A program made the translations under genes and the position numbers. From a phage: a stretch of 64,000 nucleotides of DNA. Positions 13,471-31,600 of this stretch are shown here, piece after piece (within the stretch, counting starts at the first letter, position 1; each line of letters starts with the position of its first letter). Under the pieces are notes generated by a model that worked only from the letters and a program-made list of their open reading frames with translations, had not been told where the DNA came from and made no database searches. The stretch lies in sequence record NC_100372.1; one strand, given 5' to 3'.

Positions 13471-16400
13471 TTAAAGAGAGAAAGTCGCGTAGGCTCCCAG
13501 ACGATACTGCTGGTCACCAGGGAACATAACACCTATAGAGGCTGTCCCTAGAATCCTGCCTTCCTTTCCAGACTCCATTCTGAACCCTACCCATCCGGAA
13601 CTCCTTGCAGCCTCGATGTTGTCGCTATACCCAAAAGTGGCAAGCTCGTCAACACCAGCTCCAAACAGCAACTGAAGCTGACTTCTCGGAAGCCCTATAA
13701 TTTCAGGAATATATGCACCAAAGTACACCATCTGCCCTACCTTAGGACCGCTGCCGTACTCCATCGGCTTGCTTGTAGAGAAAGTCTTCATACCAGAAGT
13801 CCCTGCCGGATTAGGGTATGCCCCGTTTGTTGCTGTGCCTATCCACATTCTCCACTGAGGTGCCATCTGTCTGACAGTGAAAGATGTTGAAGACGTTTTG
13901 CGGCCTGCATCATCCGTAACTACAAACTTTATAGTGACATTACCAGGGGCTTTAAATGTTACCAATCCTGTGGTAGCATCCACTGTTGCAATGTTAGTAT
14001 TACTACTTTCCCAAGTCTTTCTAATCCCTGGCACATTGGAAGGGGTAATAGAAGGTTCCTGCATCTGCAGTTTACCGCCCACAATCCCTATGCCGTTACC
14101 TGGATTATACAACGCACCAACTTCATCTACAATGTTACCTGCCTTGAGGCTGTACTTTTTAGAGAAGTTGTAAGTGCCGTTATATGCGTGTGTCCCTGAG
14201 AAGGTTACATCTGCCTTGCCGTTGGAGATGCAAACCAAAGCATACTTCCTGTCAGGCAACTGTGCCCCAGTTTCTGGGTGAGTTTTACCCACCTGGAACA
14301 CGCTCGGGTCAGTAGAGTCGTGGCTATCACTAACAGAGCTTGGACCACCCATCAACTGTGACAAGCAATTCCTTACCCATGTCCAGTTATTGTCACTGGA
14401 GAAGTCTACAGTCAAATCAAACACAACCCACTCATTTGGCTTCCACACAGGTGTTGTGATCAACTTACCAACACCCCCACCCTGAAGGGTAGGAGATTGT
14501 TCAGTGATCAAGGCAGAGTATGCCAGAGTTCCCAACTGCATAGTCTGGCTTGCTGTTCTCACTACCTTAGAATCAGCATCTGTGAAGTTGTTGATGATCT
14601 GGAATGTGCCATAAGTGTTTTTACAGGTAATTCTGGCATTCAGTGTATCAATCTTTCTCACATCTGCCATGGCAGTGTTAGACACAGAGAAGTCAGAAGC
14701 TTTAGCTGAGTTTGCTGCAACAGCCGGATCAACGTTGAGGGTTGCGTTGAACTGGCAGGCAGGAGTAACCAGTAGCTTGTTATCACCTATTTGCTTCCAT
14801 GAAACACTTTGAACAGGGAGATTCCATTTAATACCTGAGAAAACTTTAGCAACCCTTGGTCCCAAAGCTCCAGTTCTGTTGTCTTTACAACACATAGACA
14901 TGGTGATTGTTGACGGAGTGGCCTGACCAAACAATTGCTGGGCTTTTGCAGAGGACATAGTGTAGAAATTGTCCTTAACAAACTCATCAGCTGCTAACGA
15001 TCCGTCAGATCTCCACCATTGTACCTGGTACCCTGTCTTATCCCAGCCACCAACCTGCTTTAAGTCCTCCCAAGAGATTTCCAAATCCCCCGTGGTAGGG
15101 TTGATTGCCGCAGTTCCCGGTGTTCCAGATGACCATATTGGTATATCGAACCACGCTGGCTTAACAGACTGCACTGCGTTAGGGCCTATTGCAGCAGCAA
15201 GTTGTTGACCCATCAATACGCGAGCATCTTTCACCAGACCCCACTCGATCATGGATCCGGAGTAACCCTCTTTCTTATACGCGGATGACCCATTCAAGTG
15301 AATAAGTCTACTTGTGCCGAAGTTATGTGCTCCACCGCCGTTGTCGTCTGCAAAATTGGTTATGATTCTATCCCTGATGTTTTTCCATGCCCTGCCCCCA
15401 ATCTCGTAGTCATGGTCATAACATCTTTGCAGCGTTGTCCAGCAAATGATCGCCATCCTTCTGCCGTTACTGAAGCCAAAAGCCTGATCGTTAAGCTCTC
15501 TCCACAAATAGCAGTTAGTGGTCCACATAGCTCTGTGAATGTTGAACCAGTTTATAGACTTGGCTGAGTTATCCCACTGAGTCCCAGGTAATTCAGGCCA
15601 CACTGCATTAACCAGCATGTCTTCTGTTCCTGCATCAACCAAGAACCCTCTTACCTTTTTACCCATGCCTACCCTGTCTTTTGCAATCCAACTGCCAAAC
15701 AATCTCAGTTTTGGACCGTAAACAACATCTTCCGGATGCTCAAAAGAGACATACTTCAGATATACTGTAGGGTCACCATAGGTGCCATCACAAACAGCTT
15801 TGTGCATGTTCTCGCCAAGGTCTAGACGAAGTCCTGTTACAACTTTTGACGTGTCGGTGAATTTGTCTGTTAAATCAAATTCATACCACCACCAACCTGC
15901 ACCCAACAATACCTTCTTACAACGCTGCGCATCTGTATCAGATATTCTCTTATCTCCTGAAAAAGGTGAGTCAGCAAACTGATAGTGCAGAGCAATTTCA
16001 AAAGGATGTGTGGAGGTCCCGTTTTCTGCAAGGACTTGTTTACCTATTAAGTCACACTTAATAATCATCACAACACGTTTGTACCCATTTGTTACTGGGA
16101 TCTGCATAGACATAGATGTCCCGTCCATGTTTGATCTCAGCGCAGTCATGATGATATAAGGATCAACGGCATTACCAAGAGTTTCAGGCCCTGGAATTAT
16201 CTTATACTTCTTAACCTGCCCCATGATGTAATCACTGGCGTAAGTTGCAGCCTCGAAGCAAGATCCCCCGTTAGGCAGTTCCCCTGGCCCCCAGAAAAAT
16301 GCGCCATAACAGTTATAAAACCACTTGTTAGGGTCGTATTTGTTCTTGAAGGTCTGAACCTCGTTGGCCTGTTTTGTCAAGAAAACCTGCGTATCTGTAA

Positions 16401-19104
16401 AGATTGCAGGGTTTACTCTTGACTGTCGATTAGCATACCCGGTTTGGTTAAACCATTGATTGCAAGAGTAATCCCTCATATAATCGTAATCAGAGTATTT
16501 GTTTGCATCCTCGTTCCAACACATGTTGAGGTTGGTGCCGCCCATGCATACAATATATTCTTCAACGTATTTATCACTTCGAGTGGGAATTCCTATGAAC
16601 CATCTGTTAACAGGCTCGTCCCAAGCGGTACGTTCATCTTTAACGCAGATTGCAATCCAGTCATGTGTCCCTGTTTTCTTGCACACATCCCGTTTCATAC
16701 CGTAGTAGAATTCTTTGGTATTTGGCTCAGGTGCGCTTATCAGGTAGCTCCACGCTTGGTCTGCATAGGTTCCGTCAGTGCGTGGGTCGTGATCAAAGGC
16801 GTACATGATGATCCTTTCCCCGCCAAGATGTTCACCAAGAGTAACTTTGATGTTCACATCCCCGTAACCGTTGCGAACAACATCCATATTATCAATAGAA
16901 ATACCTCTAGGAGTGTAGGCAATTTTCAGCGAGTTATCCTCACTGGTGCCCCCAAGTGTAATCCCTATGTTGTTTGTTGTCCCGTCGGCATATCTTACTG
17001 TGGCTTCCCAGCGTATTCCGAAATATCCTGCATCATGGCTGACAATTTTCAGTGTACGAGCACCTGGGTGAGGTTTTCCAGGATCAGGCCAAGGGTCTGG
17101 GTGTTCGTGGACAGTCAACGACGTTCCGTTTTGCTCGTTAACCTGCAACATTTTACCACCTCTGCCGTTAGGGTTGAACTCCCATACGGCCTGTGTCTGC
17201 ACTAAGTTGTTGTAGGTATTTCGTCTCTGATCATAAATCTCTTGGGTAACATCATAGGTGACTGATCCAGCATCCATTCTGTGGAGTCGGACCATATACG
17301 ATGTATCTCCTTCTACCGCAGGCTGAGTCCCATTCAGCCCGAAGTATACAGTATCGTTAACATGGAACTGCTTGTTTCTACCAACGGTATGCCACTTACC
17401 GTCAGAAGGATACGCAGGAACTATGGTGTTCCAGTTCAAAGTCCTTGTCGTGTGAGTTCTTCCTGTGCCATGCTTGTCATGATAGGTTATTTTTACAGAG
17501 TACAGGCCACGTCTGTTAACATTCCTGTTATACTGAGTAACAACAACTTCGTTGGCCCCGCCGTGGTTCCAGTTGGTGGAGAATTGGTAATTTGCATCTG
17601 TAACAACCGTACCCGCAGCATTTACCAGTTCAATCTTGTCAATAATGAACGTAGCCCCCTCTGGCTGAGGCTTCAATTTCATCTTGACCGTGTCACCAAT
17701 GTAAATATTGCTAACGCTGCTAACACCGTTAACGTCAAAAATATCATCAACACCCCAACTGTCTACTGGGACATTTTTATACCAATTCTCAGGAACCTCT
17801 GTGAACCCCTGACTATTAAGTCTGCCGCCAAACAGGTTGTTAGAGCCTGCAAAACTTCCCCTTGGGATGCCTGACCACCAAAGTTTACCATTAACAACAG
17901 TAAAGGTACCTAAAAAACCTTCTCTGTGAATGCCTTGGAAATAAACACTCTCTGTCCAGCTAACTGGGAGGCGTTGCTCAACGTATTTGGCTGTGGCAAG
18001 AGCTTGATAGTGGATAAAATTGGCCCTAGGGTTATTGTTTGCAGATTGTGCGCCAATATCATTACATAAGTTGCGAGAGAATCCGCGATACTGCTTAGTG
18101 CCATTATTGAAGAAAATGCCACTTGTTCCGTACCCACGAGCCATTATTACTTCATGGGTGTAGGTAATATTTAAGGAACGCCATGTATCATCTCCCCAGA
18201 CATCTTGCCCGTAGAATACGTTAACAAGCTGCTGGTCATTGGGCTTATGCATCCGCTGTGTAACAACCACTGCCCCGTTCGGACCGCACATGAACCCTTT
18301 CCACTCCTCGTCTGCAGGAATGCCTCTCAAATCGTCACGGGTAACCTGAGCAGGAGGCCAAACGAGAGTGTTTCTACTATTATTCCTCAGAAAGTCATAT
18401 CCAGCAATCCAGAAACCTCTAGGGCCACCGAAAATAACAGAGTTATCATGCACCTCGCAGTTAATGCTTGGGTTTTTCCAAGGACCTGTTTCAGGATTTT
18501 CTGATGTTTCACCAATCTTTACAGGAGTTGCATGCTGGTTTTTATCTACATGCAAAGATCCGTAGGTGTTGTTACCAGATCCATACAGGTTCAGTATGCC
18601 AGTGCCTTCTGCCTCTGCAATAACCCAAACAGTGTTGTTAATACCACCCATCACCTCAACAAGGCGCTCTGGGTGCGTGTCAAGGTGTAACCCTTTAACA
18701 ATCTGTTCAGGAAGAGGTGTCCACTCGTTTACGCAAACATCGTTACCACCTGCCGCAGTGGATCCGATAAGACCTGCAGTGCAGCCAATGTAGAAAAACT
18801 GGTTATCAAAAGTCCGGATCACAAACGCACGGTCTGCTCTCCACACATGATCAACATTCCAGGCTGTCTCGCTCGGGTAGTTTATAGGGCTACGATCCCC
18901 CGTGCGACACTCCCCGAACTTGTTATAGCCAGTAATATTAAGCTGACCATCGTCAAAAAGTATAGCTAAGCTATTTACATAAGCTACTGTAGTGCTTGTA
19001 CCGTCACTGTTGTCTATTGGGTATGACAGAACAGCAAGTTCCTTAACTCCACCCCTCTTATCGAGGAAATGACGACCAAGTTTTAGCAAAGGGATTGGAA
19101 GCAT
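13471..19104 (-). CDS. very large tail fibre / tail-associated protein with RCC1-like and Ig-like regions
   Basis: 1877 aa. N-terminal region has repeated G-rich beta-propeller-like repeats (LYGSGNNTYGSLHV); C-terminal region has Big_2-like segment (GNVTIKFVVTDDAGRKTSSTSFTV). Last gene of the late module. Confidence 0.5.
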   Translation of the reverse strand: MLPIPLLKLGRHFLDKRGGVKELAVLSYPIDNSDGTSTTVAYVNSLAILFDDGQLNITGYNKFGECRTGDRSPINYPSETAWNVDHVWRADRAFVIRTFDNQFFYIGCTAGLIGSTAAGGNDVCVNEWTPLPEQIVKGLHLDTHPERLVEVMGGINNTVWVIAEAEGTGILNLYGSGNNTYGSLHVDKNQHATPVKIGETSENPETGPWKNPSINCEVHDNSVIFGGPRGFWIAGYDFLRNNSRNTLVWPPAQVTRDDLRGIPADEEWKGFMCGPNGAVVVTQRMHKPNDQQLVNVFYGQDVWGDDTWRSLNITYTHEVIMARGYGTSGIFFNNGTKQYRGFSRNLCNDIGAQSANNNPRANFIHYQALATAKYVEQRLPVSWTESVYFQGIHREGFLGTFTVVNGKLWWSGIPRGSFAGSNNLFGGRLNSQGFTEVPENWYKNVPVDSWGVDDIFDVNGVSSVSNIYIGDTVKMKLKPQPEGATFIIDKIELVNAAGTVVTDANYQFSTNWNHGGANEVVVTQYNRNVNRRGLYSVKITYHDKHGTGRTHTTRTLNWNTIVPAYPSDGKWHTVGRNKQFHVNDTVYFGLNGTQPAVEGDTSYMVRLHRMDAGSVTYDVTQEIYDQRRNTYNNLVQTQAVWEFNPNGRGGKMLQVNEQNGTSLTVHEHPDPWPDPGKPHPGARTLKIVSHDAGYFGIRWEATVRYADGTTNNIGITLGGTSEDNSLKIAYTPRGISIDNMDVVRNGYGDVNIKVTLGEHLGGERIIMYAFDHDPRTDGTYADQAWSYLISAPEPNTKEFYYGMKRDVCKKTGTHDWIAICVKDERTAWDEPVNRWFIGIPTRSDKYVEEYIVCMGGTNLNMCWNEDANKYSDYDYMRDYSCNQWFNQTGYANRQSRVNPAIFTDTQVFLTKQANEVQTFKNKYDPNKWFYNCYGAFFWGPGELPNGGSCFEAATYASDYIMGQVKKYKIIPGPETLGNAVDPYIIMTALRSNMDGTSMSMQIPVTNGYKRVVMIIKCDLIGKQVLAENGTSTHPFEIALHYQFADSPFSGDKRISDTDAQRCKKVLLGAGWWWYEFDLTDKFTDTSKVVTGLRLDLGENMHKAVCDGTYGDPTVYLKYVSFEHPEDVVYGPKLRLFGSWIAKDRVGMGKKVRGFLVDAGTEDMLVNAVWPELPGTQWDNSAKSINWFNIHRAMWTTNCYLWRELNDQAFGFSNGRRMAIICWTTLQRCYDHDYEIGGRAWKNIRDRIITNFADDNGGGAHNFGTSRLIHLNGSSAYKKEGYSGSMIEWGLVKDARVLMGQQLAAAIGPNAVQSVKPAWFDIPIWSSGTPGTAAINPTTGDLEISWEDLKQVGGWDKTGYQVQWWRSDGSLAADEFVKDNFYTMSSAKAQQLFGQATPSTITMSMCCKDNRTGALGPRVAKVFSGIKWNLPVQSVSWKQIGDNKLLVTPACQFNATLNVDPAVAANSAKASDFSVSNTAMADVRKIDTLNARITCKNTYGTFQIINNFTDADSKVVRTASQTMQLGTLAYSALITEQSPTLQGGGVGKLITTPVWKPNEWVVFDLTVDFSSDNNWTWVRNCLSQLMGGPSSVSDSHDSTDPSVFQVGKTHPETGAQLPDRKYALVCISNGKADVTFSGTHAYNGTYNFSKKYSLKAGNIVDEVGALYNPGNGIGIVGGKLQMQEPSITPSNVPGIRKTWESSNTNIATVDATTGLVTFKAPGNVTIKFVVTDDAGRKTSSTSFTVRQMAPQWRMWIGTATNGAYPNPAGTSGMKTFSTSKPMEYGSGPKVGQMVYFGAYIPEIIGLPRSQLQLLFGAGVDELATFGYSDNIEAARSSGWVGFRMESGKEGRILGTASIGVMFPGDQQYRLGAYATFSL

Positions 19105-19152
19105 TGTGTTCTCCAGATAAGAAAACCGCCCCGTCAGGAGCGGTCAGATATA

Positions 19153-20898
19153 TTAACGTTGTGCAATAACCACATCCACAATATCACCAACACCACAATA
19201 TGTCAATTGTAACAAGGTGACACTGTTGGCTTTGTTGTTAATAACAGGAGTAGCCGACAGTATGGCATATTTATCGTGTAAAGTCACGTTGTGGCCTACA
19301 GCATCCTGAATGACATAGATGATTGCAGTGAACGGGTAAGGTTTATCTTCAGCCGATGTTCCAGGCCATTGCCCTATTGTAAAATCCCCTTTCGCGTGGA
19401 CAACATACATATTGGCCTGCCCGTTAGGTGTCCATGTTCCACTAGATGCGTCAGCCTCCTCTAAGTCAAACTCCACCTTCCCTGCATGGAAAGCAGGGGC
19501 AGTAATAGTTTTACCAGCTTCAATTTCTTGAGAGGTGGTTATCTTGCCACTGGAGTTAATGCCATTACAGACAAAGTTGACATTAGAGAAGTCTGGCAGC
19601 CACCCAGTCACTGTACCTGATATTTCAAGGTTGTGAAGGTAGGTGGTGCCAGTCCCTGCTGCGTTTAAACTAACATCTCCATTTACCTGCAAGTTTCTGG
19701 TAACGTTGCAGTTTTCAGAGTTTGCAGTTGTTGCAGTTAAAGTGGTGGTTGTCAGCTCGGTAATTACACCTTTGTTGGCTGTAAGCCCTTCTCCTTCAAA
19801 AGTGGCACGCTCATTCACCCTCAGAGTATTTAAAGATATGTTCTGGACAGATGCTGTGCCACGAATGACTATAGATCCGCCAACCTCTAAATCTCCATTG
19901 ATCAGTGCATCTCCCGTGCTTTCAATATAGCTAGGGTAGATCATGGTGCCATCTACAGAGTAGGTTATCCCTGTAACGGTGCCTGTCACCTCAAGGTTCT
20001 TAACCCTGGTGGTCCCATCAACCTGCAATGTCGGTTCGGTGGCTGCCTTCATGGCATTACCGCGAATGTACACGTAGTCAAAAAAGTTATTACCTAGACC
20101 ATCAAAATGCACATCGTTGTTATTAGCCACTGGTTTCCCAGAAGTTATAGTGTCAGCTATAACTCTGTGAGTTGATACTTCATGAGGTTGCAGCTCTGTG
20201 CTTCTCCAGTCTGCATGCTTAGGATCGCTCCACGCAAAAGTCAGTGTAGAAGTATTTGCCGTAAGGATTAGGTTCCTGAAGCGTGCAGTAGAATCTGCTC
20301 CATTAACAGGTCCGTGTAAGGTAAGGGTACCCCCAACTATAGTGTTAGCAAGTTCTGTAAGACCTTTTACCACCAAAGATCCTACAGTAACTTTCATCCC
20401 CTCCATGGCTTTAAATATGCTATCCACATAGTCAACAACAAACTCTGTGTTTGCTATAGACTCGGACTTATCATCCATTGGAGGTGTAGGTACTCTCGGG
20501 TCACCTTCGAACCTTGGGCTGTTAAGTTTTGCGTAGTATTTTGCCATTACTGCAGAATCGGTATATAATCTCCAGTTCGGAGATTGTGAAGGATCTGCTG
20601 GCATCCTAACTGGGTTAGATTTTGATGCTGCTGGGGCGTACCACCACTGAGTGCCTGTATCCCCTTTAAACTCATACAACTGGTTAAAAACTGTTGTGGA
20701 TGCACCATACGCCCAAGGGATTGGTGGCGTTTTAAAATAAAGGGTGTCAAGCATGGCTTTTCGTACCGTAGGGATAGTGGTCCCATCCTCTACGACAACT
20801 TCATCCACAGCGTTACCGTTGACAATCAAGTGCAAACGTTCAGAATCAACAATTACTTGATCTACCGCCTGCTCGAAGCTTGTCATGTCTTGCGCCAT
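19153..20898 (-). CDS. tail fibre protein (beta-helix-like repeats)
   Basis: 581 aa; Thr/Gly/Asn-rich repeated segments typical of fibre shafts; sits in tail-fibre cluster. Confidence 0.5.
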   Translation of the reverse strand: MAQDMTSFEQAVDQVIVDSERLHLIVNGNAVDEVVVEDGTTIPTVRKAMLDTLYFKTPPIPWAYGASTTVFNQLYEFKGDTGTQWWYAPAASKSNPVRMPADPSQSPNWRLYTDSAVMAKYYAKLNSPRFEGDPRVPTPPMDDKSESIANTEFVVDYVDSIFKAMEGMKVTVGSLVVKGLTELANTIVGGTLTLHGPVNGADSTARFRNLILTANTSTLTFAWSDPKHADWRSTELQPHEVSTHRVIADTITSGKPVANNNDVHFDGLGNNFFDYVYIRGNAMKAATEPTLQVDGTTRVKNLEVTGTVTGITYSVDGTMIYPSYIESTGDALINGDLEVGGSIVIRGTASVQNISLNTLRVNERATFEGEGLTANKGVITELTTTTLTATTANSENCNVTRNLQVNGDVSLNAAGTGTTYLHNLEISGTVTGWLPDFSNVNFVCNGINSSGKITTSQEIEAGKTITAPAFHAGKVEFDLEEADASSGTWTPNGQANMYVVHAKGDFTIGQWPGTSAEDKPYPFTAIIYVIQDAVGHNVTLHDKYAILSATPVINNKANSVTLLQLTYCGVGDIVDVVIAQR

Positions 20899-20907
20899 GA
20901 TTTCTCC

Positions 20908-21174
20908 TTAAGCTTTTTGCTCTTCGTTTTTAACGTGGTCAGGGTGCTGGCAACCCCACCGGAGCGAGATGAATTTGCTAATAAGCTGGGGGCAAGCTAC
21001 CGAAGGTGCGTATATCCACGCATACCATTCAGGAAGCGTATCATTGTACCCCATATGAATAAACACCCCAGTCATCACTGCCATGCCTATGTTTGACCAT
21101 AGCTTAGATTGGGACACTTTCGTAGGGTCATCAGATGCCGCAACCAACCCCCATAAAAACTGAGTTAATTTCAT
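20908..21174 (-). CDS. small protein with one hydrophobic segment
   Basis: 88 aa ORF exactly filling the gap between two fibre genes; hydrophobic stretch NIGMAVMTGVFIHMGY. Confidence 0.35.
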   Translation of the reverse strand: MKLTQFLWGLVAASDDPTKVSQSKLWSNIGMAVMTGVFIHMGYNDTLPEWYAWIYAPSVACPQLISKFISLRWGCQHPDHVKNEEQKA

Positions 21175-21183
21175 TTACCCTCT

Positions 21184-22230
21184 TTAAGCATAAGATATGG
21201 TAATCCATTGACCGTTTACAAATTTTTGAATAGCACCAGTCCAATAGTCACCTTGATACGGGTGTTTATAGGCGTAATTGCCGGAGCACATTACATGCCC
21301 AGGGTATACTCTTGATTCTCTGTAGGTGGTTCTGAAGCGGTTTGCTATCCTTACATCTTCAACACCCCTACTAGGCATAGGGATAGTAAGGTTACCACTA
21401 CTGTCTGCGCTGCTACCGTTTACCCTGCGGACCACGTTTCTCCCACCAACTGTTGCATATTGACCCCTGGTGGTTTTATCGTTACAATCTACTCTTCCAC
21501 CTATTTGAGCGCTGCCGCAGGATTGTTGTCCATTAACAGTGGCTCTAGGTATCGTTACCGCATTAGCATTTGCAGAGGAGCTTTTTGCATCATTGCATTC
21601 AAGATTCCCTTGGATAGCCAGTCTTGCACGGTTGGCAGTTATAGCATTGAGCTTCATAGCCGAAAACACAGGCTGCCCACCAGAAGGTTGAAATCTCCAA
21701 CGGAAACCGTCTATTTGGTGAGAGGGATCATCAAGGTCTGTGCCGTCAGCACCACCTATGTTGTCCATAATCCAGAAATCCATCATCGTCTTGTCTGGAG
21801 TTATGGTGGTATATATCGCCGCATTGTCTGTTGACGCGGATGCAAACTCGATTCTTTGAAGACCTAAAGTTTGAGTCTGGGTCATTGTGTCCCCAGTCTT
21901 GTCAACATACAGGTCATCCATTTCTTCAGGCGAGTATACATTGAGAACTTGACGTGCAGCAGCTTTGTCTGGAACGTCTGCCAGATTATTAGTGACCCTT
22001 AAGAATCTATTATCCCATCCCGGGACAACATCTTCTGTTAAATGCTTTAACCACGCAGAAAGCATGTGAAGTTCAAAGTTAACAACCTCACATGCCACTC
22101 TTTGTGTCATACCCCAACCTTTCAATCTCTCTTCTTTTTTTGGTTGGGACTTATTCAATTCTCCCGTATTTTCAAGCACAACATCCTGATTGGCCCAAAT
22201 ATCAAGAGGGATAACTGGTTTAGTCATCAC
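21184..22230 (-). CDS. tail fibre protein (paralog A)
   Basis: 348 aa; shares PL(D/E)IWA start, (Y)VDKTGDTMT(G) motif and C-terminal KFVNGQWITISYA with 23243..24283. Confidence 0.55.
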   Translation of the reverse strand: MMTKPVIPLDIWANQDVVLENTGELNKSQPKKEERLKGWGMTQRVACEVVNFELHMLSAWLKHLTEDVVPGWDNRFLRVTNNLADVPDKAAARQVLNVYSPEEMDDLYVDKTGDTMTQTQTLGLQRIEFASASTDNAAIYTTITPDKTMMDFWIMDNIGGADGTDLDDPSHQIDGFRWRFQPSGGQPVFSAMKLNAITANRARLAIQGNLECNDAKSSSANANAVTIPRATVNGQQSCGSAQIGGRVDCNDKTTRGQYATVGGRNVVRRVNGSSADSSGNLTIPMPSRGVEDVRIANRFRTTYRESRVYPGHVMCSGNYAYKHPYQGDYWTGAIQKFVNGQWITISYA

Positions 22231-22317
22231 GTTCTCCTGAGAAAATTCCTTAAGGACTATTTTAACACTTTAGAGAACAAAATGCAAGAACGGCATCCTT
22301 GCCGTTCTGGCCTTTGT

Positions 22318-22632
22318 TTACCTTTTACTATGCTCTACAAGCATGTGTAAAATCTTTTGCACATCAGCTCTGATACCGGAGACATCTGTCCTGACATCTT
22401 GCTTAAGGTCGTTGATATCAGCCTCTAGCTTACTTAACCGGGTTTCAATAATGGAATCAAGTCTATCTTTTGTAACCATGCTATTTTTCACTAAAATAAG
22501 GTCTTTCTCCAGCTCATCCAACCTCTTGGAAATGCCTTTCCATTTGGTGTGCCACTGGTTGAAAGCCCATACACAGATCGGGACAACGGTACCCATGCAG
22601 ATACCGTACAATGCCGCCAAATCCAACTCCAC
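22318..22632 (-). CDS. small membrane-anchored coiled-coil protein
   Basis: 104 aa; N-terminal hydrophobic helix (LAALYGICMGTVVPICVWAF) followed by heptad-like charged region. Confidence 0.4.
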   Translation of the reverse strand: MELDLAALYGICMGTVVPICVWAFNQWHTKWKGISKRLDELEKDLILVKNSMVTKDRLDSIIETRLSKLEADINDLKQDVRTDVSGIRADVQKILHMLVEHSKR

Positions 22633-22643
22633 AACACCTCCTC

Positions 22644-23228
22644 TTAGAGGGTAGGTCGTTCCGGGAAGAAAATGTCAGGGGCTTTAGATGTATCTATTTC
22701 AAGAAGTTTTACCCTGTACATTTTCAAATCCCTGATGTTGCGTTTTTGGTCATCAGTAAGATCGTATTCAAGGTCAATCATGTCTTGATAGGCACCAATT
22801 CTAGCAGTAGCCCAAGCAAGTTCTGTCTCTATGACACCCTCTGCCTGTTGAACAAAGAATTCATTGTCTGTGACAAATTCATCACCAACTAAACGCAAAG
22901 CGTCGTGGTGGAGCATAATGTTTTCTGGTACCTCTTCTTTTTTGGCGATAACCACACGAAGACCTGGAGCAGGCCACAAGGCATCAGGTTCTTCTGTAGA
23001 TGTCTTAAGAATACCCTTCTCGTCAACAAGTAAGAAGATACAGCCTGGATTTTCTTGTCGCAGTGTTCGTGATTGCACATACCAATCGCCATCATCATTA
23101 CGTAAAAAATATCCAGTGTATGCTGTGTAATCCTCAACCTCCTGAGGAGTCAGCTCCTTGGTCTCCTTGTTGGTGTAGTATTCGCCAGATCCCGGCTGGT
23201 AAAGTTTAAACTCTTGAAGTATTTTCAT
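22644..23228 (-). CDS. tail fibre assembly chaperone (Tfa-like)
   Basis: 194 aa directly downstream of fibre paralog B; C-terminal ELAWATARIGAYQDMIDL ... YRVKLLEID resembles the conserved Tfa C-terminus. Confidence 0.5.
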   Translation of the reverse strand: MKILQEFKLYQPGSGEYYTNKETKELTPQEVEDYTAYTGYFLRNDDGDWYVQSRTLRQENPGCIFLLVDEKGILKTSTEEPDALWPAPGLRVVIAKKEEVPENIMLHHDALRLVGDEFVTDNEFFVQQAEGVIETELAWATARIGAYQDMIDLEYDLTDDQKRNIRDLKMYRVKLLEIDTSKAPDIFFPERPTL

Positions 23229-23242
23229 GCTAGTCCTCCGAT

Positions 23243-24283
23243 CTACGCATAATTAACAGTGATCCATTGACCATTTACAAGTTTTTGTAAAGGTCCTGCC
23301 CAGTAGGTTGAACCACGCATCTCTTTTTTATCACCAAAATGCCAACCTGTGACAACGTAGCCGTTGCGAACTGGAGATTCAGAAACACCATCAACAAGTC
23401 TTGCACCGATTCTGATATCCTGTACCCCTGTCTGCGGGATGGTGATCGTTACATCGCCGTTACCGTTAGCCGTCACTCCATTCACAGAGCGCACCACATT
23501 TCTGTTACCTACAACACAATGCTGGCTTCTTACAACCATACTGTCACAACTTGCGCCGCCATTAACATATACGGACCCAGCTGTCAACTGACTAGCCACA
23601 TTACAGTTGGTGAATGTTGCTGTGCTGCTAATGGTAAGGTTGTTACACCGCATGTTATCGACAACTTCAACATTACCTACCACTTTCAACAGCGCACGGT
23701 TAGCCGTGATCGCGTTCAGGTACATCAAAGTGAACTCTGGATTAATGTCTGGCTGAGTTGGCTGGAATCTCCAACGAAACGCATCTACTGTAGATGTGCC
23801 ACCATCATCAAACGCCCCAGTGTTATCACTTAACCCAAAGTCGAGAGTTGTCTTATCTGGACCAATAGTTGTCTCTATCCAAGCCTTATCTGTCTCGGCA
23901 GCTTTAAAGTTGATACGCTGCAAACCTAAGGGGCCTGTCATTGTATCGCCTGTAACTTTTACATACCTGGCGTCTGCCTCTTCCTTAGTAATAACCCCAA
24001 GGTTTCTACGGGCGACAGGAATGTTCAGAAGATCGCTCAGGTTATTATCACGTACCAGATAACGGCCCTCTTGGGCTGGGATCTGCTCGTCAGCAATATA
24101 TTTTGCCCAAGTCCCGAGCATATTGAAAATATAGTTAAGTTCTTCACATGACGGCTTTTGACCAAGATCCCAACCTTTTCTCCACAAATCATCAATCGGG
24201 CGTAGCCTGTTCTGTCTGTGGGTGTTAGGCAGAACCTGATCCTCCTCTGCCCAAATCTCTAATGGAAAACTAGGTTTTGACAT
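23243..24283 (-). CDS. tail fibre protein (paralog B)
   Basis: 346 aa; PLEIWAEED start, KVTGDTMTGPL motif, C-terminal KLVNGQWITVNYA; paralog of 21184..22230. Confidence 0.55.
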   Translation of the reverse strand: MSKPSFPLEIWAEEDQVLPNTHRQNRLRPIDDLWRKGWDLGQKPSCEELNYIFNMLGTWAKYIADEQIPAQEGRYLVRDNNLSDLLNIPVARRNLGVITKEEADARYVKVTGDTMTGPLGLQRINFKAAETDKAWIETTIGPDKTTLDFGLSDNTGAFDDGGTSTVDAFRWRFQPTQPDINPEFTLMYLNAITANRALLKVVGNVEVVDNMRCNNLTISSTATFTNCNVASQLTAGSVYVNGGASCDSMVVRSQHCVVGNRNVVRSVNGVTANGNGDVTITIPQTGVQDIRIGARLVDGVSESPVRNGYVVTGWHFGDKKEMRGSTYWAGPLQKLVNGQWITVNYA

Positions 24284-24295
24284 TTTATCTCCTGA

Positions 24296-26368
24296 TTATG
24301 AGAAGTCTGGCGGAACAACATCTTCTACATACCCTTTCAGAGCAACCTGCCCCATATGCAGAACAGTAGAATCTCTGGCGGTAACAGTGATGCTGTCAGA
24401 CATTACTTGCGGGTATGCCCACACATACTGTTTTACCTCAGGGTATCTATACTCTATGGTTGCCATGTTTCCGCAAATACATCTCCATAAAAATTCTTGG
24501 TAATTCCTGGTTGGGTCGTAGCCATATACCGGAGCAAGCTCTTTGCTAGGAACGAACCCTGCAAGGTATTGTATTTCAGACGGTTTCCAACCTAACTTAA
24601 CGATAGGTATGTTTACAGACTCTTTTGCCTTTTCAATACCTCCCTGCATCACCCAATCGTAGCACTCAGTGCAGAAGAAATCAAGAGCACCTGCTTCCTT
24701 TTTATATTGGTCAGCAAGGTTCAGTTTTTGCGTAAGCTCGGTTTCCATAATAGTGGGGAAAAACAGTAAAGCTGTCATCTGAGCCGATGCAGCGTGTGCT
24801 TTTATTGCCTTTGAAATGGCTGCAATACGAGCGCCAAGCTTACCACGACAAAATGCTACATACTTGTCATAAACACCGCCAGTTTTAGGATCGTCAATAG
24901 TCCCAATGTCTAGTGCATATTCACCAGTCTCATCATAAAACGCCTGCTTTGTAGGGTAGTCATAAATACAAGGCTTACGAGTATCGGTATTGAACCACCA
25001 CCACGGTTCACCAATCTGCATAATCACTGGCAGGTTGTTTCTCATAGCGGCTGATGCAAAATTCTTAAATACTGCAGTAAGGAAATTCATGCCCTCTTCA
25101 ATGGTTGGAGACAGGAGGTAACTACAAGGCGTATAGCCTGTTTTAGCATAGTTATCGTTCCAGTCTCTCTGGGTCCATTCCAACGGACAGGCATCGCTAT
25201 AAAGCTCAAAGCTTACAGACTGCATAACGTCGAAGTCATGTCGTTTGGCATTGTACATAAAATCATCATGCCATTTATAAGCTGCAGCGTTTAGAGCTCC
25301 TGTTTTGTTTATAGACCATTGGGTTCCTGACCATGTGTAGTCATAATAATGGCTCATACCAACATAATGGTTTATGGTTCCTGTATAGCCCAGACGCTTG
25401 ATATTGCTCAACACCCTTAAAGGGGATACGTTCCACATATCGTCATATGCTGTGCAGATCCCAACATCGTGTTCTTTCACCTGAATATTGTTAAGTTGCA
25501 TCATTTTCCAGCCTGTGTCCGGCTGAAGAAGATCTAGACGCAACTCACACTCTACATTTTCCGTTCTCGGGTCTGTGCTATTACCTACCCAATCTTTAGG
25601 CATAAGTGGTATTAGAATCCTTCTCACCTGCCGAGGATCAACACCCATCATGTTGTTGTTCTGGTCCATCCCGACGCAGTCCTCGAAATCAATATGAATT
25701 TCTGCAACATTCTTATCCTCTGAGATGCTGACAGCATATTGAGCTAAAGGAACATAGATGATTGTACCATCAACAAGGTCTACAGTCATAATCATCTTTT
25801 CAGGGGTGGAGAAGTTGCTGGCATTGGTTATTGACATTCTGAACCAAAGCTTGGTGTTTCTCATCTCGTAGTGATCATCAAATCCAATGCCGAAATGGTC
25901 ATACTTGTCAACTGTTTCCCAAATGCACCCAGCCATGCCCCCATATGTTCTTGACACTAAACGGTTAATACAGCAGTTATTATCCGCAACAATACAGGTG
26001 CTTTCAGTCTGCTGTGTGGTTGTAACCCAGTATCTTGGGTGAAACATTCTCTCCTCAACGGTATCCCAAGATATTCTGTCAAGATTCTCATCTGAAACTA
26101 TTGTACATTTCGCTCTTTGTGTTCCAATCATAACCCCTTGGGAGTTTGATGAAAACTCCATAAAGAAGCTTCTTGGCAACCTGTTTGGCAATTTGTCAAC
26201 AATTTCTACAGGGATCTCAATACTGGTTGCCCCAACCGGGATAGTTACATCGCCCTCAACATGATCATAATCCCTACCCGGAACTGCAGTATCCTGAACT
26301 GTGCGGTAATGAAACCGTGCAGCCATTGTAGAGTAATCACGGTAAGGTTTAAAAACAGCTGTTGCCAT
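24296..26368 (-). CDS. tail-associated protein with Calx-beta-like N-terminus and putative glycosidase-like body
   Basis: 690 aa. N-terminus PGRDYDHVEGDVTIPVGATSIEIPVEIVD is Calx-beta-like; remainder Trp/Tyr-rich, reminiscent of carbohydrate-active enzymes. Assignment by pattern only. Confidence 0.4.
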   Translation of the reverse strand: MATAVFKPYRDYSTMAARFHYRTVQDTAVPGRDYDHVEGDVTIPVGATSIEIPVEIVDKLPNRLPRSFFMEFSSNSQGVMIGTQRAKCTIVSDENLDRISWDTVEERMFHPRYWVTTTQQTESTCIVADNNCCINRLVSRTYGGMAGCIWETVDKYDHFGIGFDDHYEMRNTKLWFRMSITNASNFSTPEKMIMTVDLVDGTIIYVPLAQYAVSISEDKNVAEIHIDFEDCVGMDQNNNMMGVDPRQVRRILIPLMPKDWVGNSTDPRTENVECELRLDLLQPDTGWKMMQLNNIQVKEHDVGICTAYDDMWNVSPLRVLSNIKRLGYTGTINHYVGMSHYYDYTWSGTQWSINKTGALNAAAYKWHDDFMYNAKRHDFDVMQSVSFELYSDACPLEWTQRDWNDNYAKTGYTPCSYLLSPTIEEGMNFLTAVFKNFASAAMRNNLPVIMQIGEPWWWFNTDTRKPCIYDYPTKQAFYDETGEYALDIGTIDDPKTGGVYDKYVAFCRGKLGARIAAISKAIKAHAASAQMTALLFFPTIMETELTQKLNLADQYKKEAGALDFFCTECYDWVMQGGIEKAKESVNIPIVKLGWKPSEIQYLAGFVPSKELAPVYGYDPTRNYQEFLWRCICGNMATIEYRYPEVKQYVWAYPQVMSDSITVTARDSTVLHMGQVALKGYVEDVVPPDFS

Positions 26369-27054
26369 TAACCCTCCTGTCTAGTTGCGTTTACTGTAAT
26401 ACTTTCACAATAAATAGTTGTGGTATCCCAATCAGGTCTTACGTCAGGGACATATAACAAAGTAGCCAGCCCACCAACCCCGAACTGGTTTTCTTCCCAC
26501 ACTGATCCGAAGCCGAGAGCTGTAGAGTCCCCTTCAAAACCAAAAGCTTGCCCTTGCGACTCCGTAAGACGCAAATGACAAGGCAATGGCAGCATATCTA
26601 AGATCTGGTCGATAGACTGCAATATGTCAAAGCAAGTTTTTCTAATGTTTATGTCAAACCTGAAATTGTCACCTTTCCACGTATCGAAATTGTCTCTTCC
26701 GAACAATTGTCGCAAGGTGGAGATGACATCTTCGCGAGTCCCACCCCTTGATGCTGCTGCTTGCTGAATAACCAGGGTAGCACGAAAATCCGCATCTGAA
26801 AGCCCATTCCGAAGAATACCGAGTTGATTACCAACTTCGTCAAGGTATCTCCCGCTGGCATTGTTAAGCAATCTTCCTTCAGCCAAGCCTACCAGCATTT
26901 TATCAACATCCTCCAACCTTTTAAGGTACACGGTTAAGAATGTGACTAAATTAACCTTCTCAGCCAGAAAATCTCCAGGCAGGTAATCAAGACCTCCCTG
27001 AACAAAATCTGGCAGAGTGTGGATGTGGTTGACATCCGACTTAATCTCTGCCAT
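26368..27054 (-). CDS. baseplate/tail protein
   Basis: 228 aa; 1-nt overlap with next gene; downstream of baseplate J-like gene. Confidence 0.4.
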   Translation of the reverse strand: MAEIKSDVNHIHTLPDFVQGGLDYLPGDFLAEKVNLVTFLTVYLKRLEDVDKMLVGLAEGRLLNNASGRYLDEVGNQLGILRNGLSDADFRATLVIQQAAASRGGTREDVISTLRQLFGRDNFDTWKGDNFRFDINIRKTCFDILQSIDQILDMLPLPCHLRLTESQGQAFGFEGDSTALGFGSVWEENQFGVGGLATLLYVPDVRPDWDTTTIYCESITVNATRQEG

Positions 27055-28660: not shown

Positions 28661-31600
28661 TTAGTCGTGAGACTCATTCCAAGGACCTTGGAAACTTGAG
28701 TTAGAACGACTTACAACGACTGTAGGACAAGATATTGTAATGCCTGTCACGTTCCCTGTTGACCATGGTGTGTAAATCTCGATAATAATGTCTATAGTTT
28801 GTTCATCTAGACCTGTTATCCCAACTGCACACATGCCATCGTTATCGTTTCCGTACTTCTTGCCAGCAAGTAGTTGGTGACCAGCTATCCACGCATTTAG
28901 TTGAGAGTTGGCACGAGTACCGTTCAGTTTAAAGAAGAATGTTACGTTTTTACCTTGGCCTTGCACGTTGTCCACATATCTCCACCTCCAACGGCAAACC
29001 CTTTGCTGCGAGTTATATACTGGAGCACAATCTCCGTAAGTCCTGTGTGCAACAATCGCACCTTCGAACTGGTTAGCACGGATAACGGAAGCTTCTACAC
29101 GTCCACGGAATGTACCTCCTGTTGCATCTATGGTCCCTCTAAAGCTACCATTGTTGGCATAAACATCTCCACGGAAGGTACCACTGGTGGCGTTAACTGC
29201 CCCTGTGAAGTTACCTGCACTAGCGTTGATGTTACCTTTCACCCACACATCCATAAACTGGGCGTGCCCGTTCTTGTTAATATACCAACCGTATTTGTGG
29301 TACCCGTTGCCATCGTAGTTGTTTGACGAAATTTCTTGCGCGATCTTGGCAGAAGAGATCGTGCCGTTCTCTATAAAAGCGTCTTTCAAGAACGCTTGGT
29401 TGTTCTTGATTGCGAAAGCAAGGGTTGCTGTTCCATTGCCTGGGTTGTATACCGCAAAGTTGTTTGCGCTAACCATGAAATATGACTGAACTTGGCCTCC
29501 AGAGCCTTCCATGCCTAACTGGATACCTGCCACATACTTATTCCCTGCGGAGTCTACCTGTATTTTTGTGCCCCATTGAGCATTTACTTTGCCCTCTAAG
29601 TCGGTCACAGCCTTAGATGTTGTAGCCACTGCAGCTCTGAGTTCGGTCACATCTCCAACATCATCAATAATCTCCTGCTTAGCAACAGCAAGTTCTTGAC
29701 GAATAGCTGACGCTGTGCCATTAATAAGGTCAACAGTAGACTTATTAGTTTCAGAAATATTCGCAGACAATTCTTTCTTAGTCTGAGTCAGCTTATTATC
29801 CAACCCGGTAATGTTATTGGTGTTGGTTGTAATCTGCCCTTTAGCAGTGGTTAACTGCTCAGTCAAAGCTGCCGTTTTCTGATTCAATAGGTCAGTTGTG
29901 GCCTTGTTGGTGGTAGAAATCAACGTATTAAGATCAGACTTGGCGGTGTTTATCTTACCATCAAGCGTGGTGTAGTTTTTGGACACTGTGGCGTTGGTCT
30001 GGCTAATCTTCTGGTCAAGAGTCTCAGAAGTTCTGTTCAGCAAGTCCACAGTGGCCTGGTTAGTGCTCAGAATGCTCGCATCCAACTCAGATCTTTGAGT
30101 ATTCAACTTGCCCTCTAGGCTCTTATCACCAGCCAGATAGCCTTTTTCAACATCTCCGATCTGCTCAGTCAACTCTCCCTGTGCAGCAACCAGTTTTTCA
30201 TCCAACGCCTCTGTTTTCTTATTAAGAAGATCAGTGGTGGATTTGTTGGTTGACTCAATCAAGGATGATAGTTTAGCACTCTCATTCTGCAGGTTGTTGG
30301 TCAACTCACCTTTCGCTGCTGTCAGCTTATTGTCTAAAGCCTCGGTTTTCCGATTAAGGAGATCTGTAGTCGTTTTATTGGTTGAAACAATCAGAGAGTT
30401 CAGCTCAGAGCTTTCCTGTGCCAAAGCATCTTCCAATTCACCCCTTGTTGAAACAATCTTCTCGTCCAAAGCTTCGGTTTTCTGATTTAACAGATCGGTT
30501 GTAGCTTTGTTAGTGGTCTGTATTAGAGAAGTCAGCTTACCACTTTCTTTAGAAAGATCATCTGCAAACTTGTTCTGAGTGGCTACCAGTTTCTGGTCTA
30601 GAGTGGTAAGCGTTCCATTAACGTCCTGGAAGTTGTCGTGGGTTTCTTGGATGAATATTCCAACCCTATCCCCCAACTGAGCATACAGCTTGTCTACTCT
30701 AGAGAACTCACCTTCCATGTGGTCAAAAGCCTCGTCAACTCTACCATCCATGTACCTGTTAAGTTCTGTGACACGATTTTCAACCTCTTCGATAGAGGAA
30801 TCTAAAGTGCTCATCAACTCTTTATAAGTTTCTGTCTTTTTAAATTCAGCATCTATCTGAGGCATCAAATCTTCAATAGAGGTGTAGCAGCGTGCAGCGC
30901 ATTCTATAAACTGAGAACTACCAAAAGCGTTTGTGGTTCGAATATACCAATAATAGATCTTATCATTCTGCAGACCTTCAGATGTCCAAGTTGAACCAAC
31001 ACCCATACGAGTGGCTTTTGAAGTAACGGTTGCATCACTTGTGTCTGGCAGCCTTGTCATACCAGATGTCCAAAAGTCATACTGGGTGCTTACACTTGCT
31101 AAGTCCCTGCTGTGCGGAATCAAGGTGATAGCAAAGTATCCCTGCTTAACTTCTACAGAAACCGGAGCTTCAGGTGCCTGAATGTTAAACTCGCAGTAAG
31201 CTTCTGGAGATACACCACCTTTATAAGATGTTGCAACCACGGTTGCTGTGTATGATCCTTTGGTCAATCCTTCTACACGGACAAACTGCTCAACTGTCTG
31301 TGCTGTCCAAATAATCTCTCCGTTCTTTCTTACCTGCACAATATTTTGAGCATAAGTTCCAACGTTGTCCCAAGCCAAAACACCATGAGTTACTTCCCCA
31401 GCTTGAAGAACAGAGTATCTGAAGTTTTGCGGTTGAGCTACGCCGGACGGGGATATCGGAATATCCACATCTCCAGAATCCGGAAGTTGCCCTGTGGCAT
31501 CATTCCACTCTTTAGCATCTTGACGGAGTTTTACCTTGACACCGCCCTTTTTGGTGAACTCCCACTCAAGAACCCTCATTTCTTGGCCCACTATACCAAT

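Follow-up and report, generated by a model that had tools for sequence, protein, structure and literature searches.

Two paralogous short tail fibres and one chaperone at the fibre locus of an rV5-like phage, and a second fibre that differs most in its docking domain

We analysed a stretch of 64,000 nucleotides of phage DNA (sequence record NC_100372.1; the whole stretch is called the window below) with regard to its positions 19153-24283, which carry two paralogous fibre genes, designated here STF-A and STF-B (STF, short tail fibre), the gene of a tail fibre chaperone and a third fibre gene. Escherichia phage B9-1 shares 98.7% and rV5 94.4% identity with this region, which matched 117 phage records in all, and among the matched records with a taxonomy line those examined were Vequintavirus. 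It is the short-tail-fibre locus of an rV5-like Vequintavirus, a phage of Escherichia coli. The window genes pair one-to-one with those of rV5 and with the BASEL annotation of phage AlexBoehm, and the order gp35, gp34, STF-A, Tfa, gp31, STF-B, gp29, gp28 is identical in the window, rV5, AlexBoehm and the divergent metagenomic lineage L007; a second such lineage, L010 (116-3254, contig of ENA ERZ15185469), has the same order, seen from the end of gp34 onward. All open reading frames (ORFs) of the fibre cluster lie on the minus strand, at coordinates given by an earlier reading made from the letters alone (the sequence-only reading), which had left out of its gene list the ORF of 104 amino acids (aa) at 22318-22632, together with the hairpin and the promoter-like motif between the chaperone gene and STF-B. 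The features are as follows.

26368..27054, minus strand: wedge 1 (rV5 gp35 ortholog), 228 aa; phmmer match to PhiTE wedge 1
24296..26368, minus strand: fibre or sheath-like protein (rV5 gp34 ortholog), 690 aa; Pfam domains
23243..24283, minus strand: STF-A (rV5 gp33 ortholog), 346 aa; PHROG 4465 and orthology to rV5
22644..23228, minus strand: tail fibre assembly protein/chaperone (rV5 gp32 ortholog), 194 aa; Caudo_TAP
22318..22632, minus strand: transmembrane (TM)/coiled-coil protein (rV5 gp31 ortholog), 104 aa; PHROG 5345
22287..22308, minus strand: terminator-like hairpin; pattern scan and compensatory changes
22258..22267, minus strand: late-promoter-like motif TGTTAAAATA; motif scan and likeness to the rV5 late motif
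21184..22227, minus strand: STF-B (rV5 gp30 ortholog), 347 aa; PHROG 4465 and orthology to rV5
20908..21174, minus strand: small hydrophobic/membrane protein (rV5 gp29 ortholog), 88 aa; PHROG 1322
19153..20898, minus strand: tail fibre (rV5 gp28 ortholog), 581 aa; phmmer match to PhiTE long tail fibre gp241
19124..19145, minus strand: terminator-like hairpin after the 581-aa fibre gene; pattern scan
13471-19104: Ig-like fibre protein (rV5 gp27 ortholog), 1877 aa

The locus is already known and its arrangement has been published. In rV5, gp30 and gp33 are 42.3% identical and resemble short tail fibres, it was suggested that two lipopolysaccharide (LPS) chemotypes may be recognised, and gp30, gp32 and gp33 were found in the virion proteome by mass spectrometry (Kropinski et al. 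2013, PMC3606486). Vequintavirinae sensu stricto were described as encoding a pair of short tail fibre paralogs together with a tail fibre chaperone (Maffei et al. 2021, S5D Fig), for which the single-fibre locus of phi92-like phages was given as a homolog and Mu GpS/GpU as the ultimate one; the same authors noted little allelic variation of the paralogs, suggested one shared secondary receptor, and found that the BASEL Vequintaviruses require the first outer-core glucose of LPS. The same dependence was established by genetics for phage LL12 (Piya et al. 2020). More recently RBPseg (2025) classed the fibre as Mu-like and located three of the nine annotated fibres in cryo-electron microscopy (cryo-EM) maps of two Vequintaviruses at 7-9.5 A, with one density of the STF class. 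The multi-fibre 'Swiss army knife' view of such phages is likewise standard, and several further fibre-like proteins (690, 865, 1269, 1381 and 1877 aa) are present in the window, those of 1269, 1381 and 1877 aa having been named already by the sequence-only reading.

STF-A and STF-B aligned end to end with 43% identity and 58% positives (E 6e-94), and both matched PHROG 4465 'tail fiber protein' over its full length (E 1e-171 and 1e-163). Thus 21184-22227 and 23243-24283 are indeed paralogs, as the sequence-only reading had held, and the motifs PL(D/E)IWA, GDTMT and GQWIT-x-YA on which it relied were all found. Its end coordinate of 22230 for STF-B needs correction, being a program-called GTG; the ATG one codon downstream, at 22227, is the likelier start, being better spaced at 5 nt past AGGAGA and annotated as such in rV5. 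The two proteins had also been pictured with conserved ends and a diverged centre. Identity per 30-residue segment ranged from 27 to 63% over the whole length, with lows at alignment columns 46-90, 211-255 and 301-345 and a high at columns 106-150, around the GDTMT/LGLQRI block; that picture is only partly right, for besides the low at 211-255 there is one in the later half of the N-terminal domain and one that takes up most of the tip, and conservation at the C-terminus is limited to the last ~15 residues. The central domains are not highly identical and there was no recent duplication: the paralogs are anciently diverged, with dS (synonymous divergence) saturated. Recent gene conversion between the window paralogs was considered and rejected, identity at third codon positions being 13-52% over the whole length. 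Nor did the proteins prove non-structural, their rV5 orthologs having been found in virions by mass spectrometry (PMC3606486).

Compared with rV5 gp33 and gp30, STF-A and STF-B are 98.6% and 96.8% identical over their full length, differing by 5 and 11 amino acid substitutions, and the ratio of non-synonymous to synonymous divergence (dN/dS) is 0.024 for STF-A and 0.051 for STF-B. Both paralogs are under strong purifying selection and STF-B evolves about two times faster than STF-A. Insertions and deletions between the two lie in the shaft, the alignment being otherwise collinear, and AlphaFold2 monomer models (one per paralog, built on a 32-sequence alignment) predicted the same helices, H29-35 and H46-67, in both. 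A search of NCBIfam gave no match for any of six proteins.

STF-A consists of a wedge-1 docking domain (residues ~1-70/90), a shaft and a Mu GpS-like tip (~286-346). Its residues 1-108 match the PhiTE STF (9CUY_c, phmmer E 1e-19) and residues 286-343 match the Mu fibre 5YVQ (phmmer E 2e-6), while Foldseek with the STF-A model returned 5YVQ_A ('Complex of Mu phage tail fiber and its chaperone') as the sole significant fold match (E 5e-7). In the PhiTE structure the STF residues 3-92 form the joint which binds wedge 1 (PMC11972413), and in phi92, where gp147 is the only homolog, the wedge bears six trimers of it, which point downward and are proposed mediators of irreversible binding. A cognate wedge-1 gene was found upstream of STF-A (26368-27054); its product, gp35, matches the PhiTE 'Wedge 1 protein' 9MJN (phmmer E 6e-67) and Phi92_gp146 (E 2e-23), and by analogy would be the docking platform of the canonical short fibre. 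By position as well as by sequence, STF-A is orthologous to the one short tail fibre that related myoviruses have, namely phi92 fibre III (gp147), PhiTE gp236 and the fibres of Seunavirus and Mydovirus.

STF-B presents a different picture at this end. Its N-terminus matched the docking region of the PhiTE STF more weakly (E 1e-7). When conserved columns were defined as those at least 90% conserved in 26 homologs belonging neither to the A-type nor to the B-type, STF-A kept 28 of the 29 near-invariant columns within residues 1-70 and STF-B kept 15 (one column lost against 14), while outside residues 1-70 the conserved-column counts were equal for both paralogs (17/17, 17/18 and 9/9). The B-specific replacements P19E, R28Q, W34R, K43R, Y51F, N54H and Y62H are common to other B-type sequences. 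Over residues 1-110 STF-A is 57% identical to the single-copy fibres and 38% to STF-B, and over residues 111-285 STF-A and STF-B are mutually closest, at 47%. Tajima relative-rate tests on residues 1-70 with seven outgroups counted 20-23 unique changes in STF-B against 3-9 in STF-A (p between 1e-4 and 0.013), the STF-B excess being weaker in the other segments. In neighbour-joining bootstraps, trees of the body or of the full length joined A and B in 54-67% of replicates; trees of residues 1-70 never did, and in 80% of replicates they placed STF-B outside all Vequintavirinae. The divergence is thus asymmetric. The locus had been described as one of 'duplicated receptor-binding modules'; the duplication is real, but the most consistent difference between the two copies lies in the N-terminal docking domain and not in the tip.

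We also searched exhaustively with HMMER for relatives of STF-B residues 1-110 among 1.84 billion representative proteins. The B-type signature QPxKE...GW..(T/S)QR.A.E..NFE occurred among these representatives in two clusters only, B itself and the L010-type B''; every other full-length match inspected carried the canonical RPIDDLWxKGxDxGQKP(xxExxNY) motif, and the nearest relatives of STF-B outside its own group were A-type proteins. Import of STF-B from a sampled foreign lineage was accordingly rejected as the leading idea, the B-type N-terminus being confined to B/B'' and its nearest outsiders being A-type. As a separate observation, residues 72-110 of STF-B (window 21898-22014), around NNLADVPDKAAARQVLNV, hold a motif which recurs in tandem 3-9 times in many long fibre proteins and is also seen in 'short tail fiber gp92' (PDB 9ZD7); this looks like a repeat unit widespread among fibres, of which STF-B has a single copy.

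At the tips (residues 286-346) the two paralogs are 45% identical in the window and in L007, and 84% identical in L010, where the N-termini are nevertheless A-type and B-type with 37% identity between them. Since third codon positions of the L010 tips are ~50% identical, the shared tip does not come from a recent conversion. Because the tips are shared in L010 while the N-terminal types differ, the stable difference between the paralogs across lineages is the docking end and not the receptor end. A tip of the STF-A type, at 57-61% identity, was also found on fibres of unrelated ~52-kb and ~150-kb phages, a pattern that fits a mobile tip module; relatives of the STF-B tip outside the genus reach 46% at most.

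The gene at 22644-23228, called a Tfa-like chaperone from its sequence, is upheld as such by Pfam Caudo_TAP (PF02413; 45.5 bits against a gathering cut-off of 22.1) and PHROG 136 (E 1e-36), and its product is 99.0% identical to rV5 gp32. It lies directly downstream of STF-A; STF-B instead precedes the 88-aa membrane protein, which has no Caudo_TAP match. We considered whether the 88-aa or the 104-aa ORF might be a diverged second chaperone and rejected the idea, because neither matches Caudo_TAP and because in single-fibre relatives the 88-aa gene stands beside the 581-aa-type fibre gene and the 104-aa gene after the chaperone gene. One chaperone may serve both fibre tips. The chaperone of L010, it may be added, is 45% identical to that of the window.

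By tblastn, two copies of the fibre per genome were found in about 115 Vequintavirus records, among which STF-A is 96.8-99.7% and STF-B 93.7-99.1% identical, and one copy only in Seunavirus, Mydovirus, phi92-like and other relatives. Both divergent metagenomic lineages carry two fibres in the same arrangement, with the following identities to the window.

L007: STF-A 88%, STF-B 77%
L010: STF-A 73%, STF-B 45%

Two copies are thus confined to Vequintavirus-type lineages, and sister genera carry one. In Seunavirus (SSE121, GAP31 and L012) and Mydovirus (Mydo) the order is wedge 2, wedge 1, STF, Tfa and the 104-aa TM/coiled-coil gene, followed by a polytopic membrane gene of 133-157 aa (of the PhiTE-gp239 type in L012), a ~89-aa gene and a ~600-aa fibre gene; at the Tfa position Mydo has a 159-aa ORF unmatched to the window Tfa by BLASTP. 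Vequintavirus differs from this order twice: gp34 is inserted between wedge 1 and STF-A, and STF-B occupies the slot held by the polytopic membrane gene of the sister genera. The polytopic PhiTE-gp239-type gene was not found within the 64-kb window. The 690-aa gp34, which stands between wedge 1 and STF-A solely in two-fibre lineages, matched PF23845 (E 7e-80), PF23844 (E 1e-12) and Calx-beta (E 1e-5) in Pfam, its domains being Calx-beta, an NCTSP N-terminal domain and a TIM barrel. Furthermore, at the C-terminus of wedge 1 (window 26368-26440) we noticed a ~20-aa extension, …RPDWDTTTIYCESITVNATRQEG, which is present in the window and in L007, the two-fibre lineages with the wedge-1 gene at hand, and absent from the single-fibre Seunavirus, Mydovirus and phi92-like homologs. 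The extension could be an extra attachment point for gp34 or STF-B.

The 88-aa protein matched PHROG 1322 'membrane protein' (E 3e-32), with homologs of 52-58% identity in SSE121, GAP31 and Mydo and of 37% in muut (gp026). Its homolog gene immediately precedes the 581-aa-type fibre gene in the single-fibre relatives, and in phi92-like muut it stands elsewhere, between the gp34-type fibre gene and a baseplate wedge gene. The synteny in the single-fibre relatives implies that the 88-aa gene is an ancestral neighbour of the 581-aa fibre gene and was not gained with STF-B. The small hydrophobic ORF noted earlier after the second paralog is present, but by the same synteny it is not that fibre's counterpart to the chaperone. 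The 104-aa protein (PHROG 5345, E 1e-48) has an N-terminal TM segment (hydrophobic 19-mers from residues 3-6) and a coiled coil; homologs of 32-33% identity occupy the same position in SSE121, GAP31 and Mydo, and a gene of this type is kept after the chaperone gene in every relative examined, although in muut the similar protein, of 113 aa, escaped detection by BLASTP at E 1e-3. The 581-aa protein, the third fibre beside the two paralogs as had been proposed, matches PhiTE long tail fibre chain 9CUY_g over its residues 8-325 (phmmer E 3e-78) as well as PHROG 4549; the matched region includes the N-terminal part of the PhiTE long tail fibre which binds wedge 2A and the sheath initiator, and the L007 ortholog carries PF26208 and PF26209 (Phage_phiTE_241_N/C).

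Three side observations concern the surroundings of these genes. A small membrane-protein cassette made up of the 104-aa, the 133-157-aa polytopic and the ~89-aa genes is seen in the fibre cluster across the subfamily (window 22318-22632 and 20908-21174; L003 5686-6755; L005 5536-6609), and lysis, assembly or exclusion are possible roles. The 1381-aa fibre-like ORF at window 28661-32806 has a counterpart by position of 1279 aa in AlexBoehm and rV5, a length difference consistent with the report of Maffei et al. (2021) that allelic variability is found in the largest of the lateral fibre genes. Finally, 16 to 21 GenBank records (MG0656xx) titled 'Campylobacter phage', with the host given as Campylobacter jejuni, match this locus at ~94% DNA identity among the matches listed, and these host labels look doubtful.

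The only sizeable intergenic gap of the fibre cluster, 22228-22317, separates the two paralogs. By pattern scan it holds the hairpin 22287-22308 on the minus strand, followed by the conserved TTGCATTTTG/TTGCATTTT, and in a comparison of four lineages compensatory changes were seen at three of the five consensus pairs of this hairpin. The motif TGTTAAAATA (22258-22267), kept as TGCTAAAATA in L007 and L010, precedes STF-B by about 30 nt. The rV5 late motif is TggTAaAAtA (Kropinski et al. 2013, PMC3606486), and the form TGKTAAAATA had 5 matches in the window against 0.5 expected, all on the minus strand, which is the coding strand of the late genes.

22258, minus strand: TGKTAAAATA, just upstream of STF-B
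28589, minus strand: TGKTAAAATA, just upstream of the gp36 start
34405, minus strand: TGKTAAAATA, just upstream of the gp40 start
48550, minus strand: TGKTAAAATA
52075, minus strand: TGKTAAAATA

The motif probably marks the late promoters described in rV5. The hairpin in the gap is a putative terminator that would close the unit containing STF-A, the chaperone and gp31, and a second hairpin at 19124-19145 (9 pairs, 6 of them G-C, then a T-rich tail; pattern scan) follows the 581-aa fibre gene. Together the hairpin and the late-promoter-like motif in the gap suggest that the paralogs belong to separate late transcription units, one with the wedge genes, gp34, STF-A, Tfa and gp31 and the other with STF-B, gp29 and gp28.

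Taking these results together, we consider it likely that the phage makes two short fibres of the Mu-tip type with one chaperone, STF-A being the canonical wedge-1-docked fibre and STF-B an old duplicate which docks elsewhere. By analogy with the single fibres of related myoviruses STF-A would be a homotrimer, its N-terminal ~70-90 residues plugging into the wedge-1 protein encoded just upstream (26368-27054) and its Mu GpS-like tip being folded with the help of the Caudo_TAP chaperone (22644-23228). Irreversible adsorption probably takes place through binding of this tip to the outer core of LPS; that the fibres are in the virion and that such phages depend on the LPS core is known from the literature on close relatives. 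STF-B is an old duplicate kept by selection and confined to Vequintavirus-type lineages, and its gene is probably the first of a separate unit that also contains those of the 88-aa protein and the 581-aa fibre. As its docking domain has changed at about half of the near-invariant positions, we infer that it docks at a site or on a partner different from that of STF-A. In that case each virion would bear both kinds of short fibre as separate sets, and the two would not be alleles in competition for a single site. More tentatively, and as a possibility to which we give somewhat less than an even chance, the function of STF-B may have changed precisely at the docking end, the adaptor having been remodelled after duplication so as to mount the fibre at a second site specific to Vequintavirus. 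This site might be provided by wedge 1 through its C-terminal extension of ~20 aa, by the neighbouring gp34, or by the 581-aa fibre at its head. If this is true, the tips could either diverge, which they did in the rV5 lineage, or be common to both paralogs, which they are in L010, and it was the attachment site and not the receptor specificity that the duplication fixed.

Several observations weigh against this reading. STF-B retains the invariant N-terminal residues P4, P7, W11, A12, N25, P29 and G37, a shared core that would still permit docking at the same wedge-1 site, and a single STF-class density is seen in the Vequintavirus cryo-EM maps. As sisters, A and B have only moderate bootstrap support, and the B-type N-terminus may have been imported from an unsampled phage. 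The Mu-like nature of the second tip is less direct: phmmer against PDB gave no match of the STF-B tip to Mu GpS, the link to that family runs solely through the 45% identity to the STF-A tip, and Foldseek with the STF-B model returned no significant fold match, noise only. The AlphaFold monomers are of low confidence (pLDDT 63 and 60, pTM ~0.3) and permit no comparison of tip structures, and the use of one chaperone by both fibres is itself presumed.

Some of these points are what would be expected if both paralogs competed for the same six wedge-1 sites, giving mixed tips per virion; this would hedge bets as the S/S' alternation of Mu does, but with the two fibres co-expressed and no inversion involved. 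The docking region of the PhiTE STF is matched by the N-terminus of STF-A (E 1e-19) and by that of STF-B (E 1e-7), the two N-termini share the predicted helices H29-35 and H46-67 and the seven invariant residues named above, and one density of this class was located. We nevertheless regard such competition as unlikely, for STF-B has lost 14 of the 29 near-invariant docking positions through replacements that are conserved among B-type sequences, and the L010 tips, 84% alike on A-type and B-type N-termini, are hard to explain by tip specificity alone.

The remodelled docking domain would also suit an STF-B mounted off the baseplate, as a branch fibre on another fibre, for instance on the 581-aa fibre at its C-terminal head, since the two genes seem to share a transcript. 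The stretch from the promoter-like motif at 22258 to the hairpin at 19145 does hold STF-B together with the 88-aa and 581-aa genes, and RBPseg reports unassigned density on the head domain of the Vequintavirus fibre class TC8. The identity of class TC8 with the 581-aa protein could not be confirmed, though, and single-fibre relatives have the same 581-600-aa fibre without any STF-B, so that we hold a branch fibre to be quite improbable. A single fibre species of STF-A/STF-B heterotrimers is favoured by the similar lengths, the collinear alignment and the report of both proteins in rV5 virions (PMC3606486), and yet it is scarcely credible given an identity of only 43%, the shaft indels, the apparently separate transcription units, the roughly twofold faster evolution of STF-B, and homologs in relatives that work as a single gene product, the PhiTE and phi92 fibres being described as trimers. 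That STF-B is merely redundant, or a duplicate in decay, and has no role of its own would fit its faster evolution, the lack of any phenotype assigned to it in the literature consulted, and the little allelic variation and one shared secondary receptor put forward by Maffei et al. (2021), but is highly improbable in view of its dN/dS of 0.05, its intact ORF in about 116 phage records (93.7-99.1% identity) and two divergent lineages, its own conserved promoter-like motif and the detection of its rV5 ortholog in virions (PMC3606486).

The reading we prefer, a canonical STF-A and an STF-B that docks elsewhere, adds modest new details to a paralog pair which has been in the literature since 2013: STF-B differs most in the end that plugs into the baseplate, and there is a lineage, L010, in which the tip is shared. 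Its added value is a testable hypothesis, namely that the second fibre differs mainly in its attachment to the particle, and this would be a guide when models are fitted anew to the existing Vequintavirus cryo-EM maps, where only three of nine annotated fibres have so far been placed. With their broad host range, the rV5-like phages are candidates for use in therapy and in the biocontrol of E. coli O157, and engineering of host range depends on which fibre makes the irreversible contact with the LPS core and on how the fibres are mounted.

Among known systems the closest are rV5 and the BASEL phages, in which the genes are orthologous and gene order and lengths identical, with few substitutions and no substantive difference. 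Mu GpS/GpU (5YVQ) resembles the locus in the STF-A tip, by sequence and by fold, in the Caudo_TAP gene directly downstream of it, and in a chaperone whose ortholog is retained in rV5 virions (PMC3606486). Mu, however, alternates S/U and S'/U' by DNA inversion, whereas here both fibres lie on the same strand with one chaperone gene; moreover, the N-terminal docking domain, most clearly that of STF-A, is of the PhiTE/phi92 type, and STF-B has no direct match to Mu GpS. With PhiTE gp236 (9CUY/9MJN) and phi92 gp147 the locus shares that docking domain and a homologous wedge-1 partner, and with phi92-like muut the gene order wedge 1, STF, Tfa; PhiTE and phi92 have one such fibre against two here, and the PhiTE fibre, from a flagellotropic phage, has a coiled coil and Ig-like domains in place of the Mu-like shaft. 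The likeness to T4 gp12 is one of function, a trimer fixed to the baseplate that makes adsorption irreversible by binding the LPS core. HHpred related gp30 and gp33 to T4 gp12 with 98.4% and 97.7% probability, in that order for gp30 and gp33 (Kropinski et al. 2013, PMC3606486). By phmmer against PDB neither STF-A nor STF-B matched T4 gp12. The two systems differ also in the type of chaperone, which for the T4 short tail fibre is gp57A and at this locus is a Caudo_TAP protein.

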